Positions 12,612 through 45,720 of a stretch of DNA of 64,000 nt are shown here, one piece after another (the first letter of the stretch is position 1; every line of letters begins with the position of its first letter). The notes beneath the pieces are model-generated. The model did no database searches and was not told the DNA's origin. It saw only the letters and a list, made by a program, of their open reading frames with translations. Source of the DNA: a virus (Duplodnaviria; Caudoviricetes); the IMG/VR virus record IMGVR_UViG_3300037781_000208, positions 18,840 through 82,839 of that record; one strand, 5' to 3'. The position numbers and the translations under genes were made by a program.

Positions 12612-13112
12612 TTAAACATTCAACTCGAAAAACACAGGGGAAGGGTTGTGTTTCAGGTAATCCTCGTCCGACAACTTCTCGTAGCGGATAAATTGGCCAG
12701 TCCTATCGATACGGAAATTATTAGAGTACAGCAAAAACCTTGCTCGAAGTCCTGAATCTTCTCGGTTCGTGTTAACTTGAGCTTTGAGTTTAACAACGCC
12801 ATCTAAGCGCTTTGCCTGATCTATTAGGAAACGTAATGCAAACCTTCCAACTCCTTGGCATTGATGATCTTTATAAACTCCAATTGTGATGACTCGAGCA
12901 GCTGGATTATCTTTGGCCGGAACCCACCATGCGAATCCTAACTCGGTAAGGCTAGGATCAAAGAGTAGCCACACATCGACACTATCATTAAACTGTTCTC
13001 CAAGCCGACCAGCAGTTCCATGCTCCAATTTAAATTCGTTCAAATGAGAACAAACCTTTTCATGAATCTTGTAGGGCTTCGGCTGTAACCTGGCAGAGTA
13101 ATTACTACTCAT
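12612..13112 (-). CDS. GNAT-family acetyltransferase-like protein
   Basis: Motif A-like ITIGVYKDHQCQGVGRFAL; last gene of the low-GC operon. Confidence 0.65.
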   Translation of the reverse strand: MSSNYSARLQPKPYKIHEKVCSHLNEFKLEHGTAGRLGEQFNDSVDVWLLFDPSLTELGFAWWVPAKDNPAARVITIGVYKDHQCQGVGRFALRFLIDQAKRLDGVVKLKAQVNTNREDSGLRARFLLYSNNFRIDRTGQFIRYEKLSDEDYLKHNPSPVFFELNV

Positions 13113-19875: not shown

Positions 19876-22352
19876 GGCTCGATGTAGTTGCCGCCATATA
19901 TCGATTCGTCCCGATAAAAGTCGGCCCTTGCATAATCGGAATCTGTCAACCCTGACGCGGTCGCACGCGCCCAGATGCGGGTTTCCGGGTAGACGGTGAA
20001 CGAACCGGTGTAAGGAGCGTAGGTGCCGCCTCCGGACAGAACCCCGATCAGCCCTAGCTTATACTCAATGGCTGCGCCTGCTGTGGAACAAGTGATTGAA
20101 ACACTGCGGCTGGTGCGGATGAAGCCCCCACTTGGCGAAATGGAAGGGGTGGCAACTTTGCCTGCGGGCTGGTCGACCTCGATGGCAATTTCCGAGTCGG
20201 TGATCCGCCCTGTGGAATCCTGGGCCCGGGCGATCAATGTGAATGTTCCCGAATCGGCGAAGTTAACCGTCCGCTCGAAGTTGTAGAGTCCGGTCGGGTT
20301 CAGGGGTACGGAGAAGAGCGTTTCCTCTGTTCCATCAGCCGCCCGGCGGATCAGCGAGAAATGCGAGAGGTTCCCATCGGCGTCTGTAACTTCCCCCGCA
20401 AAGCTGACATTGCCAGGGGGAGAGGTGTATTGCAGGCTCGCGGTCGCCGGTGTCGTGAAGGAAACCTGTGGCGCATAGGCCAAGGAGGACGGAAAGGTGA
20501 AGGGGATGTCTCCGCATCCGGACAGTTCCCGCTGGGCGAAGATGGTGAAGGGCTGCAGGCGAAAATAGCCTGTCTGGATGAGGTTCTGCAGGACCGCGAA
20601 GTCCCGGTGCCCGAATCCTGTCAGGCCAAATCCAGGGATGATCCAGCACTCGCTCTGGCCATTCCAAAATGCCCTGCGCTTGGTACCGTAGCGTTCACGG
20701 AAAGCGGTCACCGCGTACGCGTCGTAGCCGGTCTGGGTGAAGGACTCGATGGAATAGATCTCAATGATGGGGAACCCGTCAGCGTCCTCAGCCACTGCCC
20801 CACTTCCGTCCTTGTGAATACAAACCATGAGGAGCTGGTTGTCACGGGCGGCCGTTGGTCCCGGATCATCGTCGATCATGTCGCGGTCCCGGGTCGAATA
20901 GATTTCAATTTCGAAAGGTCCGTTGGAATTCTCATCCCATCCGTCCGTCGGGCTACCGCGCAGGGCGAATACCTCCTGCAAACCAAGAAACTGGAATGAG
21001 CCGCTGGTGGCACTGTCGTAGTGCACGTTCACACCGGTGACGAGGTCATGGGGCCTCTCGGCCAGAACGCCCACCTGGATATCGCCGGAGACCAGTGGGG
21101 CGGGAAGCTCGAAAACCCGTTGGTAAGTGATGGCAGGCGGCTCTGTCTGTTGCGGTGAATCCGGAAGGTCCGCGGTCGGCGTGTAGACCACGGGCGAGAT
21201 GCCCATTTCCGCCTCGATGCGCAGCTTGATGGGACCGGTCTGCGGAACAGTTCGTTCGGTGACGCGGAAAACCTGCTGAACCTGTACGTCCCCCGGTTCC
21301 GGATCGATGTCCACACGGATAAGGTCGCCCGGTCGGATCCCGATGCCCTTAACCCGGCGCACGGTGAGCTCGCCCTTGATGACCGGCTGGCCCTTGGCCT
21401 TCCCATACTCGGTGACGTGAAAGAACGCCTGATCGCGGCGCATGATCCATGGGCGTTTCAGGGTCGCTCTGCGATGGTCGCCCACAATCCGCAGTGCCCG
21501 GAGATCATCGTGCTTCTCGGTGGTTTCCTTGAATCCCCGGTCCCGGTCGGTGAAGGTGATTGCCCAGCCGGTTTCGGATTCGCCCCAGCCACCGCCTTCG
21601 AACTTGGGGCGCTCAGTGAATTCATCGGCTGTGAGAAGTGGCAAGCCACTCACGTCGACCGTTGCATCATGGGGCCATGCTCCCGCCTCAATTGTTTCGG
21701 TCTCCGGATTGAAGCGAAGCCAAAGATCGGCATTCAGGGCCATTTCAGCCACAGCCTGGCGGGCCGGTACTTGCTGGTTTAACAGAGCGGAAATATATGT
21801 GTTCGGGTGCTGGTTGTTGAGAAACAGCTGATCCGAGGTGGCAAACCACGAACCCAAATCAAAGCCCGCGGAGGCCAGCCCAAGACCATAGCGGGGATGT
21901 GTCAGAAAATCTGCCAGGGAGGCGACCGGGGATGCCTGTTCATCATATAGTTCCGCCGCCCCGTTACTAAAGACGCTCTGCTGGGGCTTGCGACGAACCA
22001 CCACCTCCAGATTTGGAGCACTGGTGCGCTCCCGGCCAAAGAAGAAGTCCACCAAAACGATATAGCAAACGCCCTTGTAGGCGGGATGTTCATGCCCGTG
22101 GTTGTTGCTTCCGGGATTGAGCAGAGGATCCACGCTCTGGGTTTCGGTTCCCCAGTAGAAGCGGATGACACGCCGGGAATCGACGGTGATTGTCGAATAG
22201 TTGGTGGCACTGCCCCGATATAGCGGTCCCTTCCAGGCGCTTTCGCCATCGACAATGATTTCATCGAGGACATCAACCGGCCCATTGCAGACCACGCCAG
22301 CCAAAGAGCCGTGGTATTCCCAAAACTTGATTTTGCCACTTCCGCCACTCAT
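19872..22352 (-). CDS. Tail tip / host-specificity protein (J-like) with C-terminal Ig-like and CHB_HEX_C-like domains
   Basis: CNGPVDVL..I, IRFYWGTETQ..D..L, HPAYKGVCY, PNLEVVVRR; C-terminal VATPSISPSGG...YTGSFTV; start set to ATG 22352 (ATGA overlap). Confidence 0.8.
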   Translation of the reverse strand: MSGGSGKIKFWEYHGSLAGVVCNGPVDVLDEIIVDGESAWKGPLYRGSATNYSTITVDSRRVIRFYWGTETQSVDPLLNPGSNNHGHEHPAYKGVCYIVLVDFFFGRERTSAPNLEVVVRRKPQQSVFSNGAAELYDEQASPVASLADFLTHPRYGLGLASAGFDLGSWFATSDQLFLNNQHPNTYISALLNQQVPARQAVAEMALNADLWLRFNPETETIEAGAWPHDATVDVSGLPLLTADEFTERPKFEGGGWGESETGWAITFTDRDRGFKETTEKHDDLRALRIVGDHRRATLKRPWIMRRDQAFFHVTEYGKAKGQPVIKGELTVRRVKGIGIRPGDLIRVDIDPEPGDVQVQQVFRVTERTVPQTGPIKLRIEAEMGISPVVYTPTADLPDSPQQTEPPAITYQRVFELPAPLVSGDIQVGVLAERPHDLVTGVNVHYDSATSGSFQFLGLQEVFALRGSPTDGWDENSNGPFEIEIYSTRDRDMIDDDPGPTAARDNQLLMVCIHKDGSGAVAEDADGFPIIEIYSIESFTQTGYDAYAVTAFRERYGTKRRAFWNGQSECWIIPGFGLTGFGHRDFAVLQNLIQTGYFRLQPFTIFAQRELSGCGDIPFTFPSSLAYAPQVSFTTPATASLQYTSPPGNVSFAGEVTDADGNLSHFSLIRRAADGTEETLFSVPLNPTGLYNFERTVNFADSGTFTLIARAQDSTGRITDSEIAIEVDQPAGKVATPSISPSGGFIRTSRSVSITCSTAGAAIEYKLGLIGVLSGGGTYAPYTGSFTVYPETRIWARATASGLTDSDYARADFYRDESIYGGNYIEP

Positions 22353-33067: not shown

Positions 33068-33378
33068 GGGTTCAAAACAGCGCATTCCACGCGGGCGATC
33101 AGTGAATTGGGGCTACGGTGCAGACGAGTCACCCGGTAAAGGAATCCATCCTCATCAGTGAGGCTCGCCCCGACCTTTAGGGCATCGGAGGGGATTTCAG
33201 AACGGAAGGCGGAAACCAGCACGCTGTCATCATCAGATGGAGTAAGGTCATATTCCTCACTCTCCGGTTGCAGTCGCTTAACGAGTCCCCGGAACGCTGT
33301 TACGCCATGCGTGAAGGTGCGACCGGTCGCTTCCAGTAATTCCTCGAATCCCTCCAATTGATCGGTGGTGTGACTCAT
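33064..33378 (-). CDS. Head closure / head-tail adaptor (lambda FII-like)
   Basis: 104 aa beta-rich protein just after the capsid gene. Confidence 0.6.
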   Translation of the reverse strand: MSHTTDQLEGFEELLEATGRTFTHGVTAFRGLVKRLQPESEEYDLTPSDDDSVLVSAFRSEIPSDALKVGASLTDEDGFLYRVTRLHRSPNSLIARVECAVLNP

Positions 33379-33403: not shown

Positions 33404-33438
33404 AAAGAAAGAGGCCCCACCGTCGCCAGTGGAGCCTC
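33404..33438 (-). terminator. Intrinsic terminator after the major capsid gene
   Basis: GAGGCTCCAC-TGGCGACG-GTGGGGCCTC followed by TTTCTTT. Confidence 0.75.
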
Positions 33439-33472: not shown

Positions 33473-34375
33473 TCAGGCAACGTCCTCGATGCGGAGAATA
33501 CCATCGGTGATGGCGGTGCGCCGGCCATAGACACACTCGAAAGCGGCGATTTCCTTGCCGGAGTCGTTGTCGTAGAAACGCCGGTACCCGATGGTGATTC
33601 CGGTCTCGGGATCCGTGACGGCTCCCGTTTCCAGGTAGGACTCCGGGCGCAGCGGTTGCAGGTAGCGCATCGCCACAGCCAGTCCCTTCGGATGTGCCAC
33701 AAAACCGACGAGATTCTCCGTGTTGTCCGGCATGATGGTCGTCTCATAGACATCAAAGCCGTAGATGCGCGGGATGCGGGCCTCCATCAGAGAGGGAGCA
33801 CTCATCTGCGCGAGGTAGCTCTGGGAGACCTTGGGATCGCCCAGCAAATTCGTGTAGTAGGCGTCGTTGATGATGAGGGCACGTGAAGCCACCGGCATGT
33901 TCTTGGCCGCACAGGCACCACGCAAAGAGAGAACCGTGGAGGCATCGAAGTCGGCGGCGGCCACCGCAGGGATCCCAGCCGCACCGTAGTTGGCGATGGT
34001 GACGATGTTCCAGATGTCCGTGAGAACATCCTCGGCCAACTGCCGGGCCTTTTCCTCGGCCAGGCGTTCCATGGTGGGCCAACTGGATTCACTCACTTCC
34101 TTGTCCGTCAGGTGCAGGGACTGAACCTTGTGGCGGTCCAGAACGACCGGCAGCGAATTGACGTTCGAATCCATGTTCTCCGAGTAGCTCCCCGCAAAGT
34201 CGTAGGAGGCGCCAGCGGCACCGACCACCGGCACATTCACCGTCTTCCCGCGTTCAATGAACTCGCTGGAAAAGTCGGTCGAGAACGCACGCAGGGGCGT
34301 GAGGGCGGCGACAAAGGTTTTGAGAAACTTGTCCGCAATGCGGATGTCCTGAAGATTGGTGAGGGTGTTGGCCAT
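33473..34375 (-). CDS. Major capsid protein
   Basis: 300 aa; GKTVNVP, LDRHK, ALIIN..YY.NLL, RIYGFDVYE, AFECVYG; follows protease and scaffold genes. Confidence 0.88.
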   Translation of the reverse strand: MANTLTNLQDIRIADKFLKTFVAALTPLRAFSTDFSSEFIERGKTVNVPVVGAAGASYDFAGSYSENMDSNVNSLPVVLDRHKVQSLHLTDKEVSESSWPTMERLAEEKARQLAEDVLTDIWNIVTIANYGAAGIPAVAAADFDASTVLSLRGACAAKNMPVASRALIINDAYYTNLLGDPKVSQSYLAQMSAPSLMEARIPRIYGFDVYETTIMPDNTENLVGFVAHPKGLAVAMRYLQPLRPESYLETGAVTDPETGITIGYRRFYDNDSGKEIAAFECVYGRRTAITDGILRIEDVA

Positions 34376-34404: not shown

Positions 34405-34872
34405 TTACTTGCCGATGAGGGCGTCGCGGTGCTTGCGGAAGAAAGCGGTTTTCTTTGCCGGATCGGTGATGGCGTTGAACTGCTCAAGGAGATCGGCCTG
34501 CTTCGCATCGCCTGCTGGGGTCACCTGGACAGGATCCACTCCAACAGAGGCGCAGATTTCAGCGGCTTTGCTCTCCGCTTCTTTTGCTTCGGATTCCAAC
34601 TGCGCAATGCGGGCATCAGCTTCGGCCTGCTTCTCCTTTGCCTGGGCGAGGTCGTGGTCCAACTGCTTTTCCTTCTCGTGGGCAGCGTTCAGATCATTGG
34701 TCAGGGCCGTGATCTTCTGGTTGGCATCCTCCAGCATTTCACTGGCGGCGGTAAGATCGCCCCGGACGGCATCCAGCTCGTCAGCCGAGCTTTGATGGGC
34801 CGAGAGCAGATTGGCGTAAGCCTCGCGTGCTTGGGCGAGTGTGTTCAGTTCTTCCGATGCGGCGAATTTCAT
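34405..34872 (-). CDS. Scaffolding-like coiled-coil protein
   Basis: Long Ala/Glu/Lys coiled coil between protease and capsid genes. Confidence 0.65.
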   Translation of the reverse strand: MKFAASEELNTLAQAREAYANLLSAHQSSADELDAVRGDLTAASEMLEDANQKITALTNDLNAAHEKEKQLDHDLAQAKEKQAEADARIAQLESEAKEAESKAAEICASVGVDPVQVTPAGDAKQADLLEQFNAITDPAKKTAFFRKHRDALIGK

Positions 34873-35696
34873 GCCTTCTTTGGCATGTCAACCAGACGCA
34901 GCAACTCGGCATAGGTATCGGCGTAACTGCCCACGTGATCCACGAGGTTTGCCTCCTTTGCTTTGCGACCAATAAAGGTCTGCCCGCGCATGGCATCCGG
35001 ACCGATGTTACGATGTTTCACGACATGATCGCGGAACTGCCCGAAATACTCATCCACCATTTCCTGTAGGTGTTCCCGGTGCGCGTCCGTGAATGATGGT
35101 GGCCAGGTTGCATCCTTCAGGTCGCCCCCGGTATGGGTGATGTAGGCGGGCTTCCAGCCGCGCTGTTCCCATGCCCCGGACACATCCACAAGGGGCAGGA
35201 TCGTTCCGATGCTTCCGACCTGCGCCGAGGGCGACATCGCAATAAAGTCCCCGGAAGCGGCCAGTGCATAGGCAGCCGAAGCTGCCAGTTCATCAATCCA
35301 TACGGCCTTCGGCTTTTTGATGCCGCTTAACATTTGGGCTGTCTCCACATTCCCGGCCGCCATGCCTCCAGGGGAATTTACGTGGAAGAGGAATCCCCGG
35401 GCGCCATCCTCGACAGCAATCTGGACTTCCTCCTCAATCTGCTCGTAACCGGTGTTTCCGCAGGAGCGTTCAATCTGGCTTAAGTGCCGTCCCAGGGTTC
35501 CCGTGATATGAACATGGGCGATTCCCTGCTCGTCGATCTCGGCATCCGGGCGGGGATTCACGAAGTCCGACAACTGAAGGTTCGAGGGATCCGCAAATAT
35601 CCTGCTCTGGAATATCTGGTGCAGGGCGAGCCATCCGTCACTGGTAATGTTCCATGGAGCGCGGTAAAGGGCGTTGGTGATGTGGGCGAGTCTCAT
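34869..35696 (-). CDS. S49 (SppA / ClpP-like) head maturation protease
   Basis: VNSPGG, AASAAYALAA, AQVGSIG, ANLVDHVG. Confidence 0.92.
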   Translation of the reverse strand: MRLAHITNALYRAPWNITSDGWLALHQIFQSRIFADPSNLQLSDFVNPRPDAEIDEQGIAHVHITGTLGRHLSQIERSCGNTGYEQIEEEVQIAVEDGARGFLFHVNSPGGMAAGNVETAQMLSGIKKPKAVWIDELAASAAYALAASGDFIAMSPSAQVGSIGTILPLVDVSGAWEQRGWKPAYITHTGGDLKDATWPPSFTDAHREHLQEMVDEYFGQFRDHVVKHRNIGPDAMRGQTFIGRKAKEANLVDHVGSYADTYAELLRLVDMPKKA

Positions 35697-35705
35697 GGCT
35701 GAAAT

Positions 35706-35775
35706 TGGGACGAGGGGCAGGAATCGAACCTGCGTTGTCGGGTTATGAGCCCGACCGAATCCATTTCACCCTCGC
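35706..35775 (-). tRNA. tRNA-Met(CAT)-like gene, 70 nt, shortened D-arm
   Basis: Acceptor GCGAGGG/CCCTCGT + C + CCA; anticodon arm TCGGG-CTCATAA-CCCGA; T-arm GCAGG-TTCGATT-CCTGC. Confidence 0.72.
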
Positions 35776-35896
35776 GCATCTTCATCCTTGGAGCTGTCAA
35801 CCAGCGCCCGAGCCTGCGGCATGGGTAAGTCCCCGAATGTCGAGAAGAAATTTCAGTCAAAATTGACTGATTTTCGGGCTTCTTATTCCAATTAAA

Positions 35897-36133
35897 ATGC
35901 CTTCTTTTCTGAGCATGAACTCAGCACAAAAGTCTGATTACCCGGATCCTTCCAAAGCCGTGCTAGGCTTTTCAAAAAGAGAGAAACTTTGGATTCCAGT
36001 ATTCTGGTCGCCCGAACACCAGTTCTGGTTCATGGAACTGGGAAGTGGTAATGTGGAATCATTTCCCCCCTCAGATATCATCGACTGGATGGATATGCCA
36101 AAGGCTCCAAAAGAATCAGTCCTTATAGGATAG
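35897..36133 (+). CDS. Small antisense-oriented moron ORF
   Basis: 78 aa, lower GC, fills the gap between the portal gene and the tRNA. Confidence 0.45.
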   Translation: MPSFLSMNSAQKSDYPDPSKAVLGFSKREKLWIPVFWSPEHQFWFMELGSGNVESFPPSDIIDWMDMPKAPKESVLIG

Positions 36134-37507
36134 GTTTGAGCCCTGCGGTTTGTAGAGCATTTCGGGAGGTACTCCGTATTTATTGGCAGCATCAATGATC
36201 GCTCTCGCATTCTGCCCCCGCTTTTCCAGCTCCTCCCGGAAATCCATGCCCAGTTCGGCGAAGTGATCGTCCAGGGTCTTAAGCCCTGTCTCCACATCTG
36301 CGCGATTTTGCTGGGCCTCCCGTCCGGCGTCGACTGTGATGCGTCGGGGCGTCACCCATGCCACCTTGTTCCAGCCCTTCTTGGGTTCCAACTCGCCACG
36401 GTCGATGGCATCCCCAATGACCCAGCCCCATGTGGGACGCAGGAATCGCTGGATGAGGATCAGTTGGCGATAGGAAAAGCGCCGGTCGGCCTTGGCGACA
36501 ATCAATCGGACTGAAGCTCCGCCAACCTTTGTCGGGTCGAGGACAAACTCATAAGGGAGAACGCCCGCACTGCTGTCCCGCTTCAAGTGCTCCAGGAATC
36601 CCGTGAAGACCGGGCTGGGTCGATGCGATTGGAAACTCTCCATGGATTCGCCTGGCTTCAAAGCCACCACCTTGCCCCCCACAATCTTTTGAATCGCAGT
36701 CGGATCACTCTGCTCGGCCAATTCACCCGTATCCGATGAGACCCGGAAATCCCCATCGTCCTCGAGTGTTCCCTCCTGACGCTTGATGATCCGGGATACA
36801 TCCTGATTGTCCTTAACTGCGTGCTTCTCCAGCGCGAGCATCTCCATTTCATCAAGAACGTGGTTGATCGAGTGCTGCATGGTCGGATGGCTGCGGGCGC
36901 CGCTGGCAAACTCCGGTTCAAAGACGTGCATCACCGCGTTGGCGTAAACCGGTCGGTAAGTGCCATCATCCTGCTGGACCATGTAAGCCAAGGGTGCCCC
37001 AAATTCATCGAAGAGCACTCCGTCAATGGATTCGGCATCATCGGCGCCGGACCCAACCCGGTGTGACTCAACCAACTGGATGCGGGCGCGGCCAAGGCGG
37101 TCGCGAACTTTCAGCACAAAGTATTCGCCGTCCACGTCGATGCCTCGGCAGACAAGGTTCTGGCATTCTTCGAAAGAGAATCGGTTCGTTACCTCCGGAC
37201 GGTTGCACCAGCGAAGAAAATACTGCTCTGCAGCGCGATTCCATTCGGGATCTTCGGTCTGCGCTTGTGGCCGGATTCCATCCCCGGTAGAGTAGATCGC
37301 CATGTCGCCCACCACTTCACGGGCAAATCCGCTGTTCTTGTTCAGGTACCGGCTCTTGCGCACCAGTTCACGCCGGGCGTGCGGGGTTAGTTCCTTTTTT
37401 GCATCGGTGGGCGCGGCTCCAGGGACCCGGGAACGGCGCGACGAGTAATTGGCCGCCTCGTAGGGGGAAATCGACAGGATGCGGGCAATGCGCTGGAGGA
37501 TCTTCAC
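36116..37507 (-). CDS. Portal protein, lambda family
   Basis: SRYLNKNSGFA, DGEYF..., VMHVFEP...RSHP, LKPGE......S.RP, SSAGVLPYE, W..PR...VDAGRE. Confidence 0.92.
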   Translation of the reverse strand: MKILQRIARILSISPYEAANYSSRRSRVPGAAPTDAKKELTPHARRELVRKSRYLNKNSGFAREVVGDMAIYSTGDGIRPQAQTEDPEWNRAAEQYFLRWCNRPEVTNRFSFEECQNLVCRGIDVDGEYFVLKVRDRLGRARIQLVESHRVGSGADDAESIDGVLFDEFGAPLAYMVQQDDGTYRPVYANAVMHVFEPEFASGARSHPTMQHSINHVLDEMEMLALEKHAVKDNQDVSRIIKRQEGTLEDDGDFRVSSDTGELAEQSDPTAIQKIVGGKVVALKPGESMESFQSHRPSPVFTGFLEHLKRDSSAGVLPYEFVLDPTKVGGASVRLIVAKADRRFSYRQLILIQRFLRPTWGWVIGDAIDRGELEPKKGWNKVAWVTPRRITVDAGREAQQNRADVETGLKTLDDHFAELGMDFREELEKRGQNARAIIDAANKYGVPPEMLYKPQGSNLSYKD

Positions 37508-40537: not shown

Positions 40538-41233
40538 TTACTTCATGAGGAGCCAACCGGCGAATTGCAGATGCCGGTAGACCAGTTCATAGCGGACAAA
40601 GCCAACACGGCGAAAGAGTGCCTCGTTCTCAGCCACGGTCTGCGGGAACATCTGGCCACGCAGGGCAGCGGACTTGTTGAGAACCTCCTCGGGACTGAGC
40701 CCGTTCTCCAGCTTCATCTCCCAATACAGGGACTGGGTGATGTCCTGGAATTCCGGAATGCTCCCAAGAACCTTCTCAACAACGAAGAAGCCGCCTCCTC
40801 GTTTGAGGGAGTCATAGCATACAGACAGTACCGTTTGCTTGGCCCCTGGCCGGAGGAACTGGAGCGTATAGAGGGACACCCCGTAGTCATGCCCGCTGAT
40901 TTGGGTGAGCATGGAAAGGTCGCAGAAATGGACATCGACCCCCTTTGCCTTGGCCTGCTGGATCATCGCCCGGGAGTTGTCGTAGCCGATGACCTTGATG
41001 TCCTTCTGGGGATTGCGGGATTGAATTCTCAGCAGGGTCTCTCCGGTGGAGGCCCCAAGGTCGATCACTGTTCCGCCATCCTGCAGGAACCAGTCGGCAA
41101 AGCTCGCCGCCAGATCCTGAATGCGGTCATAATCCGGCACACTCTTTCGAACGTGCTCATCGAAATGAGGGGCGACCTTCTCGTCGAACACCCAGTTGCT
41201 GCGGGTTGTCTCAATGCCTTGTCCGGCTTCCAT
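40538..41233 (-). CDS. CmoA-like class I SAM-dependent enzyme
   Basis: WVFDEKVAPHFDEHVRKSVPDY, DLGASTG, DNSRAM, YTLQFL, VVEK match the CmoA layout. Confidence 0.8.
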   Translation of the reverse strand: MEAGQGIETTRSNWVFDEKVAPHFDEHVRKSVPDYDRIQDLAASFADWFLQDGGTVIDLGASTGETLLRIQSRNPQKDIKVIGYDNSRAMIQQAKAKGVDVHFCDLSMLTQISGHDYGVSLYTLQFLRPGAKQTVLSVCYDSLKRGGGFFVVEKVLGSIPEFQDITQSLYWEMKLENGLSPEEVLNKSAALRGQMFPQTVAENEALFRRVGFVRYELVYRHLQFAGWLLMK

Positions 41234-44515: not shown

Positions 44516-44964
44516 AACAGCCCCGATTGCGCGAAGGAGTAGTAGCCGGTCCCACAGGGATCAGCGTCCTTGTCCCCAATTATAACGTGGTCAAGCAGGT
44601 CGATCTGGATGGTCTTGGCCGCCTCCCGCAACTGGCGGGTAGCCCGGATGTCAGCCTGACTCGGGTTTGGATCGCCGCTTGGGTGGTTATGGACCACGAT
44701 CACGGCGGAACTGTTTGCCAGTACTGCTGGGCGGAACACTTCCCGCGGATGGACAAGTGCGGCCGTGGCCGTTCCCTTCGTCACCGCGACCCGTCCGAGA
44801 GGCTTGTTTTTCCGGTTCAGGAGGATGACGTAAAACCACTCAACGGTGGGGTCCGGATCGAACGCGTCCCCCATATATTGAAAAACCCGCTCCGGGGAGT
44901 CTACCACCGTGAGCGGGCCTGATTGGACCAGTTTGTATTTGAGGGACGCCTCGTAGATTCTCAT
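44512..44964 (-). CDS. radC: RadC-like JAB domain protein
   Basis: E.F.VILLN.KN..., VHPREVFR.A, HNHPSGDPNPSQAD, LLDHVIIG. Confidence 0.92.
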   Translation of the reverse strand: MRIYEASLKYKLVQSGPLTVVDSPERVFQYMGDAFDPDPTVEWFYVILLNRKNKPLGRVAVTKGTATAALVHPREVFRPAVLANSSAVIVVHNHPSGDPNPSQADIRATRQLREAAKTIQIDLLDHVIIGDKDADPCGTGYYSFAQSGLL

Positions 44965-45452
44965 GCGTCCACCTCCCGGCGCTCATGCGCCCATCCTTCC
45001 CGGCGAATCCGCCCTCGGAGGGTGTTGATCGGCACATCCATGAGTCGTGCGACATCCTTCGGGGCGCGTCCCTGCACGTAGCATTCCTTGATCGCCTCCC
45101 AGTCGTATTGGGGACGGGGCTTGGTGTTCTGGAAGGGGGTCGGCTCAGGCGCCTTTTCCTCCTCTTCGCTCTCGCCCTGAAAGGCGTCGTAGCGTTCGGC
45201 AGGGGGGGTCGGAATCGACGGTCGGATTTCCGGAACGCCCTCGCCGGTGGACTGCCCGAGAATTTCCGCGACAATCTCCCGGATCAGGGGGACAGGGATT
45301 TCCGTGATGGAGAAGACCAGTCCGGTCAGGCTGGCCCGACCCAGTTGGTCCTTGAGGTGCTTCATCGCAGCCCCTCGCGTTCTTCCGAGGTAGCGGCCCT
45401 CGAACAGGGTCTTGTCGCTTTCCTCGCATACGATCCAGTATAACTTATCCAT
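44961..45452 (-). CDS. Hypothetical protein with a C-terminal HTH; start MDKLYW at 45452
   Basis: GAAAGGA RBS; DWEAIKECYVQGRAPKDVARLMDVPINTLRGRIRREGW. Confidence 0.7.
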   Translation of the reverse strand: MDKLYWIVCEESDKTLFEGRYLGRTRGAAMKHLKDQLGRASLTGLVFSITEIPVPLIREIVAEILGQSTGEGVPEIRPSIPTPPAERYDAFQGESEEEEKAPEPTPFQNTKPRPQYDWEAIKECYVQGRAPKDVARLMDVPINTLRGRIRREGWAHERREVDA

Positions 45453-45720
45453 GGTGTTGTTCCTTTCGGTTTGTTGTTGATTGTGCTGGTTCATTCCAGC
45501 GAAGCAGGTGGCCGGGTGTTTCCGTCACAAGTCCGGTCCGTTTCAACGTCTCGACCAGCCGGGTGTAGTCATCCAGTGTGACTTTCCCCATGAGCCGGGC
45601 ATAGAGTTCGCCGGAGGGCACTTCGCCCGCGTGGCGGATGATTTCAGCGAGGGCCTTGAGTGCCTGGAAAGCGGATTCCAGTTGGTCCCTCAGTTCGGTG
45701 TTTGATGGTCCTGTTGCCAT
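45445..45720 (-). CDS. Small wHTH-like hypothetical protein
   Basis: VPSGELYARLMG...LVETLKRTGLV; start uncertain because the ATG overlaps a putative -10 box. Confidence 0.6.
   Translation of the reverse strand: MATGPSNTELRDQLESAFQALKALAEIIRHAGEVPSGELYARLMGKVTLDDYTRLVETLKRTGLVTETPGHLLRWNEPAQSTTNRKEQHHG

Follow-up and report, generated by a model that had tools for sequence, protein, structure and literature searches.

We identified a compact initiator-type tRNA-Met gene at the junction between the portal and head-maturation protease genes of a lambda-like prophage. With a probability of about 0.58, we regard it as a working accessory gene of lambda-like Opitutales prophages, which would be expressed late, excised, charged and used to sustain initiation. 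Its carriers are a lambda-like prophage family of marine Verrucomicrobia, found in Opitutales (Verrucomicrobiota). The sequence shows a genuine, conserved phage tRNA of unusual structure. Phage tRNAs are a known kind of gene, and what is new here is the compact initiator-type form at a head-gene junction, which is relevant to both tRNA and phage biology.

The tRNA gene and its neighbours are located as follows in the window (the whole stretch of 64,000 nt that was analysed):

36116..37507, minus strand: lambda-family portal protein, 463 aa (Pfam PF05136, E 1.8e-41)
35803..36115, no strand: insert between the portal stop and the TTGACA motif, unique to the window, with no match in the other loci compared
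35706..35775, minus strand: compact initiator-type tRNA-Met(CAU), 70 nt with the encoded CCA included (ARAGORN, Rfam, fold, covariation, relatives)
34869..35696, minus strand: S49 head-maturation protease, 275 aa (Pfam PF01343, E 8e-24; 77 homologues)
34405..34872, minus strand: scaffold-like gene, with its ATG 13 nt behind GGTTGACAT
33473..34375, minus strand: major head protein (phrog_283, E 5.8e-26), with its ATG 13 nt behind GTTGACA

ARAGORN called a single tRNA in the whole window, a tRNA-Met(cat) at 35706-35775 on the minus strand, and placed its anticodon at position 29, where 33-36 is usual. Against Rfam RF00005, the sequence scored 45.1 bits (E 2.8e-8), above the gathering score of 29. 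Three of the four positions on the 5' side of the D stem are deleted relative to the Rfam model, which places the loss in the D arm. The cloverleaf is also the minimum-energy fold, at -28.2 kcal/mol (z -2.5). A preliminary description of this DNA had proposed a 70-nt tRNA(CAT) cloverleaf at 35775-35706, and both the ARAGORN coordinates and the above-threshold Rfam score bear this out. The details it listed (CCA, three G-C pairs, G1-U72 and discriminator C) are all present in the sequence, and its count of 14 nt separating the acceptor from the anticodon arm is correct for a 5-bp anticodon stem. Sequence, Rfam and relatives agree with its view of a real, initiator-like tRNA with a shortened D arm.

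The 70 nt are divided into 7 (acceptor), 1, 3-5-3 (D arm), 1, 6-7-6 (anticodon arm), 3, 5-7-5 (T arm), 7, 1 and CCA. The single nucleotide between the acceptor and the D stem is U8, and a G leads from the D stem to the anticodon stem. The 5-nt D loop, AUGGA, retains GG; the anticodon arm, UCGGG-CUCAUAA-CCCGA, has three G-C pairs, and the sixth pair of its stem is 26:44. The variable loop is AAC, the T loop is UUCGAUU, the discriminator is C, and the first pair is G1-U72. A canonical D arm has 2 linker nt, a stem of 3-5 bp and a loop of 7-11 nt, from which the phage tRNA departs with its 1 linker nt and 5-nt loop, and its third D-stem pair is unpaired in three of nine copies. We know of no D arm this small that functions with bacterial factors. 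Between the end of the tRNA at 35706 and the protease ATG at 35696 lies a 9-nt spacer.

The 70-nt form or a 73-nt form was found at the portal-protease junction in at least 15 related contigs. A second, related portal-tRNA-protease copy (L002) is present near the start of the same 82.8-kb provirus record, and the 70-nt gene occupies the same junction in MAGs of Oceanipulchritudo, Puniceicoccaceae and Opitutales (L003-L007), in the IMG/VR contigs L014 and L015, in the metagenome contig L020 and in the Logan contig L196. Its recurrence at the same place in related phages puts the phage tRNA far beyond chance. The tRNA copies are 84-99% identical to the window copy, against 74-89% for the adjacent protease gene and 44-74% at its third codon positions, which points to purifying selection on the tRNA.

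When nine distinct tRNA sequences were laid on the proposed structure, 98.4% of the cells were paired and 4 pairs had changed on both sides; with three more distant copies added, 96.8% of the cells were paired and 5 pairs had changed on both sides. These double-sided changes fall in the anticodon stem (the extra 26:44 pair included), the D stem and the T stem. Three compensatory pairs maintain the anticodon stem. The sixth pair, 26:44, itself covaries, with G-C, C-G and U-A variants. None of 500 shuffles reached the observed covariation score, and slid controls were 42-54% paired.

Across the 70-nt clade and L199, a relative with the 73-nt form, CUCAUAA, the D-loop GG, the T-loop UUCGA and CCA are unchanged and the adjoining stems vary. 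The 7-nt anticodon loop with U33 and purine 37 is held in the same set and broken in L122/L127 (C37, C38). The GGG/CCC closing pairs are present in all 70-nt copies, the last pair being G-U in L004; the 1:72 pair is G-U in six copies and A-U in four, and G-C in L122 and L127; and the second D-stem pair is A-U (A11:U24) in 12 of 12 copies. Conserved loops with compensated stems mark a tRNA-shaped RNA that is still working and speak against decay. If the gene were a tRNA pseudogene in decay, or its cloverleaf a product of chance, the losses, replacements and degraded copies seen in parts of the family would be explained, but the 70-nt clade and L199 show compensatory changes and are conserved well beyond the coding DNA that flanks them. 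We consider such an explanation extremely improbable, and the fallback of a decaying tRNA in the preliminary description is wrong for this clade.

The gene has a patchy distribution. With covariance model R1, the search model for the 70-nt form in sampled genomes, this form was found in 3 of 151 sampled genomes of the order and 4 of 37 genomes of the family, and in 0 of 150 further genomes of the phylum; a 73-nt relative occurs in two genomes of other families. Among the 73-nt versions, L199 is well formed, with a 7-nt D loop, a 4-nt variable loop, a canonical anticodon loop and a compensated change in the T stem. The copies of G097 and of the cultured Ruficoccus sp. ZRK36 (L122, L127/L200) appear degraded. 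In L122 and L127, the loop is YUCAUCC, the D stem has mismatches and the first pair is G1-C72, and one of the two has an extra base before CCA. Both have pyrimidines at 37 and 38, and CAU is retained even in these degraded copies.

In the tRNA-less L016/L017, L197, L157 and L203-L205, the portal and protease genes abut, and in L198 and L202 an unrelated opposite-strand gene stands in place of the tRNA. L153 and L159 have a 95-nt three-hairpin element at the tRNA site (z -3.2), whose last hairpin retains T-stem sequence and whose 5' boundary with L199 falls after tRNA position 4; an Rfam search of this junction element gave no match. On the protease tree, the tRNA carriers make up two clades interleaved with non-carriers, and the carrier L199 is sister to the non-carrier L159 (support 98/90). 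This interleaving indicates that the gene is accessory and was lost or replaced several times.

The main rival reading of these data is that the element is a cis-acting, tRNA-like processing signal (punctuation), at which RNase P and 3' nucleases separate portal from protease-capsid expression and yield a short-leader mRNA, with aminoacylation irrelevant. The tRNA stands 9-10 nt before the protease ATG in every carrier, and another structured element occupies the same site in L153 and L159. Because the L122 and L127 copies are aberrant, including their anticodon loops, the best-kept parts family-wide are the acceptor and T arms, the parts that a pure processing signal would depend on. Further, the portal stop codon lies inside the tRNA in eight copies (L002, L014, L015, L007, L196, L199, L122 and L127), so that cleavage would truncate the portal message. 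However, the anticodon arm is needless for processing, yet CUCAUAA is invariant in the 70-nt clade and L199, the stem around it is compensated, and CAU outlasts the degradation of other parts. Many close relatives also join portal to protease directly, with no structured element. A role in processing alone therefore seems unlikely to us, and we prefer a working initiator-type tRNA.

The likely source of this tRNA was sought among host initiators. The host MAG G003 has 44 tRNAs, three of them with CAT. The initiator traits common to the phage tRNA and the host initiators (G003, G125, G027 and G059) are C73, CUCAUAA and A11:U24, the last being an initiator-specific pair. The T stem GCAGG/CCUGC is the same in the initiators of G125, G027 and G059, and that of the G003 initiator differs. 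Opitutales tRNA-fMet (host copies L101, L123, L125 and L128) has CAU, CUCAUAA and three G-C pairs by the loop in common with the phage tRNA, and also A11:U24, C73 and an encoded CCA. At 1:72 these hosts have A-U or U-A, a weak pair as in the phage tRNA; neither has the C-A mismatch of the E. coli initiator. Unlike the Opitutales initiators, which are 77 nt long, the phage tRNA has 70 nt, a 3-bp D stem with a 5-nt loop, one linker nt instead of two, the extra 26:44 pair and a 3-nt variable loop, and it is encoded inside a phage head module. The acceptor pairs 2:71 and 3:70 are C-G and G-C in the phage tRNA versus G-C and C-G in the host initiators. These two pairs contribute to formylation in E. 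coli, and their swap makes formylation of the phage tRNA uncertain. A recent host copy as the source was rejected: outside the prophages, neither BLAST nor pattern searches turned up a near copy in four host MAGs.

Judged by these comparisons, the phage tRNA evidently derives from an Opitutales initiator tRNA, with its core rebuilt into the layout of mt-tRNASer(UCN) and tRNAPyl. In both tRNAPyl and mammalian mt-tRNASer(UCN), one nucleotide links the acceptor to the D stem, the D loop is small, the anticodon stem has 6 bp and the variable loop has 3 nt, and mt-tRNASer(UCN) retains G18, G19 and the T-loop consensus (PMC7609411). The compact core of the phage tRNA has this architecture of mt-tRNASer(UCN) ("type I" mt-tRNA) and tRNAPyl, as a likeness only, with no homology or common descent implied. 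Like mt-tRNASer(UCN), the phage tRNA retains G18, G19 and the T-loop sequence; it differs from both in its 3-bp D stem, its CAU and initiator features and its bacteriophage setting. Whereas tRNAPyl has CUA, G73 and G1:C72 and neither G18/G19 nor the T-loop consensus, the phage tRNA has CAU, C73 and G1-U72, with GG and UUCGA present. The 73-nt relatives depart from the compact layout in their 7-nt D loop and 4-nt variable loop. A review of non-canonical tRNAs mentions no phage example of the compact core (PMC7609411).

The tRNA-Met genes of T4-like Klebsiella and Aeromonas phages are 81-83% identical to the phage tRNA in the 3' half, from the anticodon arm to the acceptor. Unlike the compact tRNA, they are canonical and lie in tRNA clusters of large lytic phages. 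Among the cultured phages of INPHARED, no match to the full compact form was found, and only the 3' half of canonical tRNA-Met genes was matched. An IMG/VR search with the T arm and acceptor strand returned, beyond the known members, unrelated large-phage tRNAs and a few degenerate tRNA-like pieces (L180, L188, L191 and L192), none of them in a portal-protease setting.

Upstream of the tRNA is a motif that recurs along the phage genome:

35794..35802, minus strand: GGTTGACAG, one copy of a phage-specific gene-start motif, 19 nt upstream of tRNA position 1

The TTGACA core of this copy is at 35795-35800. The motif was found upstream of the tRNA site in all 11 aligned junction sequences that reach so far, with or without the tRNA and even where the region is non-coding. 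The window has 19 copies of TTGACA on the minus strand and two on the plus strand, and 11 of the minus-strand copies have an ATG or GTG 13-16 nt downstream. The starts behind it include those of the portal, scaffold, major head and several tail genes, as well as the ATG of a short upstream ORF (uORF) over the tRNA. Metagenome relatives, too, have the GGTTGACAT motif before the scaffold-like gene (loose ends at 34897). Along 320 kb of host chromosome, TTGACA-N13-16-start is about as frequent as expected by chance, and nine cases were found in the prophage of that host. From this pattern, TTGACA-N13-16-ATG is a phage-specific gene-start signal. The preliminary description had placed the uORF ATG behind an RTTGACA motif; the motif proved to be a start signal, with that ATG at the spacing of real genes.

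The late genes behind TTGACA are without a Shine-Dalgarno sequence; several early phage genes have one. In a sigma-70 promoter scan, the TTGACA copies had no partner -10 box, and a search for a phage sigma factor or ribosomal protein S21 that could explain the motif found neither. Two ORFs gave only a weak region-4-like helix-turn-helix match, one of them being a conserved 177-aa protein at the early/late boundary; a two-domain model of this protein was good (mean pLDDT 77) and had no significant fold match. The major head gene is followed by a strong terminator-like hairpin (33411-33438) and then by the next TTGACA copy, and the insert contains a terminator-like hairpin at 35853-35870 on the minus strand. 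Of the two roles considered for TTGACA, promoter and translation signal, we lean towards a late promoter that would give very short leaders, because terminator-like hairpins lie directly upstream of two of its copies and because carriers without the uORF still need protease expression. The insert, which is skipped by metagenome variants, also has a 78-codon plus-strand ORF (35897-36133) with no family match in Pfam or PHROGs.

In the carriers, the geometry is TTGACA-N19 (N18 in the 73-nt forms)-tRNA-N9/10-ATG, with the spacer sequence saturated with changes. In the tRNA-less L016/L017, L197, L201 and L202, TTGACA lies 13-16 nt before the protease start. The fixed geometry, together with the signal before the protease in tRNA-less relatives, indicates that the tRNA was inserted between the signal and the protease start.

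The uORF spans the tRNA:

35693..35779, minus strand: 28-codon ORF across the tRNA, in ATGA overlap with the protease start (three-frame translations of 12 loci)

As had been described before, it opens with an ATG at 35779, 15 nt behind TTGACA, and runs for 28 codons to a stop at 35693 in the ATGA overlap; a second in-frame ATG is at 35785. The preliminary description had proposed that the same RNA is either translated as a 28-codon leader coupled to the protease or processed as a tRNA, and that this choice gates capsid maturation. In six copies (window, L002, L003, L014, L015 and L020), the ATG is indeed 15 nt behind TTGACA, within the 13-16 nt range of real genes, and the frame ends in the ATGA overlap. 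These are the only copies with the uORF ATG, and since they belong to one protease clade, they count as one event. With this spacing, translation of the frame in this sublineage is conceivable. The ATG is missing from about half of the variants (L004, L005, L006, L007/L196, L199, L122, L127 and two metagenome variants), and the codon at its position in other carriers is AAG, AAA or AAC, including in an RNA-library contig and a metagenome DNA contig. In L004-L006 the stop comes two codons earlier, in L007/L196 there is 1 extra nt and the frame runs into the protease frame, and in L122, L127 and L199 the frame coincides with the last part of the portal ORF, which stops within the D arm. In L002 and L004, portal, tRNA frame and protease are in frame with one another; since this does not hold in L005, L007 or L016, it was rejected as chance.

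Six of the 15 variable columns in the uORF are at third codon positions, most changes alter the residue, and substitutions across it preserve RNA pairing. That every 70-nt copy has this frame open follows simply from conservation of the tRNA sequence. Of the two things that the preliminary description looked for in relatives, the cloverleaf is kept and compensated, but the ATG, stop and frame of the uORF vary; relatives without the uORF frame, which it had itself named as evidence against its idea, do exist. A translated coupling leader finds no support, given these unconserved signals and the lack of a coding substitution pattern, and the same protease occurs in relatives with neither tRNA nor uORF. 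We judge such a dual-use element very improbable. The uORF is most likely a lineage-specific, incidental reading of conserved tRNA sequence in one sublineage.

For the working tRNA, we propose the following course of events. It would be transcribed late, probably on the protease-scaffold-capsid transcript, because it is fixed 18-19 nt behind a signal that directly precedes the protease gene in tRNA-less relatives. RNase P and 3' processing would then release it, MetRS would charge it via its CAU anticodon, and it would sustain initiation while structural proteins are made. An RNA-library contig of a relative, with DNA carry-over possible, starts 20 nt before TTGACA, crosses the tRNA and reaches the protease gene. 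After excision, no more than 9-10 nt of leader would remain on the protease mRNA, similar to the TTGACA-ATG distance of other late genes. It is conceivable, if somewhat unlikely, that one element does two jobs in this way, the excision of a miniature-core initiator tRNA made from a late signal also producing a short-leader protease mRNA.

The E. coli thrU-tyrU-glyT-thrT-tufB operon and mitochondrial transcripts are known cases of tRNA-mRNA co-transcripts and tRNA punctuation. As in these, the phage tRNA lies directly upstream of a protein gene and probably on the same transcript; in several relatives the portal ORF also overlaps it. Unlike in these cases, a mere 9-10 nt separate the tRNA from the ATG, with no Shine-Dalgarno sequence. 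The suggestion that tRNA processing gates capsid maturation is weakened by close relatives that have the same protease and no tRNA: being absent, replaced or degraded in close relatives, the tRNA is accessory and cannot be a required gate. A cis P-site model, in which the tRNA still attached to the mRNA decodes the protease AUG, was rejected on geometry, since 9 nt would not bridge the acceptor end to mRNA position -10. A CmoA-like methyltransferase (PHROG label 'tRNA methyltransferase') was likewise rejected as a partner, as it acts in U34 modification and has no evident link to a C34 tRNA.

We also weighed an anti-defence role, in which the gene supplies a spare or nuclease-resistant initiator, or a decoy, against initiator-cleaving host toxins, with a remodelled core that escapes recognition. 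That phage tRNAs evade tRNA-targeting defences is a published proposal (PMC10264068). The altered D arm and elbow and the patchy accessory distribution would fit an arms-race gene, but no tRNA-targeting nuclease was identified in these hosts, and the anticodon loop, the usual cleavage site, is the same as the canonical initiator loop. Such a role is compatible with a decoding or a processing reading; we hold it to be quite improbable.

Few RNAs are as conserved as initiator tRNAs. So far, tRNAs with a compact core have come from mitochondria and the pyrrolysine system. Ruficoccus sp. ZRK36 (CP080649.1, near 2.236 Mb) is a cultured carrier of the degraded 73-nt relative, so experiments are possible. 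If the phage tRNA works as an initiator, the bacterial initiation apparatus can use, or the phage can exploit, a compact scaffold, and the gene would offer a natural candidate for orthogonal initiator tRNAs. The function of a phage tRNA would then be tied to late genes that apparently initiate without a Shine-Dalgarno sequence.

Eleven late-gene starts in the window carry TTGACA, then a spacer of 13-16 nt, then ATG or GTG, and Shine-Dalgarno sequences are absent at these starts. All lie on the minus strand:

Window, minus strand, TTGACA at late-gene starts (first T): 43857, 41253, 37808, 37526, 35800, 34891, 34394, 33397, 31883, 27407, 19949

At 19949 the distance to the start codon is shorter, 9-10 nt. 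The motif is strongly strand-biased in the window (19 minus vs 2 plus). The motif-spacer-start pattern also occurs in the related prophage of G003, a host MAG, and was not found beyond chance level in 320 kb of host chromosome. TTGACA is a phage-specific start signal, which could act as a late promoter or in translation. One of these copies, with the gene at 33378, adjoins a putative terminator:

Window 33411-33438, minus strand: terminator-like hairpin (12 bp, T tract), directly 3' of the major head gene

A candidate late regulator, which might read TTGACA, is encoded at the early/late boundary:

Window 44961-45494, minus strand: conserved protein of 160-177 aa

A second copy lies at about position 13010 of the 82.8-kb provirus record (G000:C1:~13010), and most of the 679 homologues are on Verrucomicrobia-type contigs. 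Its N-terminal part is confidently predicted as an alpha/beta domain, and its C-terminal three-helix domain weakly resembles sigma region 4.

Another minus-strand gene adjoins ParB-methyltransferase genes, with the small terminase gene just downstream:

Window 40538-41233, minus strand: CmoA-like SAM-dependent enzyme, PHROG label 'tRNA methyltransferase'

Its product matched PDB 4gek (E 1e-24) and scored 125 bits against TIGR00740, below the cut-off.

Across related loci, the portal-to-TTGACA gap is an insertion hotspot:

Window 35803-36115: 313-nt insert seen only here; contains a hairpin and, on the opposite strand, an ORF of 78 codons
L006:2247-2900: endonuclease VII-like gene (phrog_1035, E 5.5e-8)
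L198:326-1156 and L202:567-1154, reverse strand: unrelated genes

Another insertion site, in relatives, lies between the scaffold-like and major head genes:

L196:2526-3042 and L197:2644-3109: small toxin-antitoxin-like genes (BrnT_toxin; weak ParE_like match)

Two portal-protease relatives carry a different element in place of the compact 70-nt tRNA-Met(CAU), and a tRNA-like piece occurs on an unrelated AT-rich phage contig:

L153:2395-2500, and the same place in L159: element of three hairpins, about 95 nt, z -3.2
L180:2967-3034, minus strand: degenerate tRNA-like piece, 68 nt

The three-hairpin element had no Rfam match. It retains the tRNA's opening four bases, plus a hairpin that carries the T-stem sequence GCAGG/CCTGC, and may therefore be what a rearrangement left of the tRNA. 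The L180 piece, not called as a tRNA by ARAGORN, has the same acceptor and T-arm sequence as the compact tRNA, a UCAUAA stretch in its middle, and GTTGACA 35 nt upstream.

Outside the window, a related portal-tRNA-protease module occurs on the provirus record as a second copy (L002, G000:C1:1-2753), whose protease is ~86% identical. The duplication points to a tandem pair of related prophages, with the compact tRNA in each. In L002 (1218-1227), L014, L015, L007, L196, L199, L122 and L127, the portal ORF overlaps the same-strand tRNA gene by 10-13 nt, placing its stop codon at tRNA positions 8-10 or 11-13. If RNase P cut a read-through transcript at these loci, the resulting portal message would lack a stop codon.
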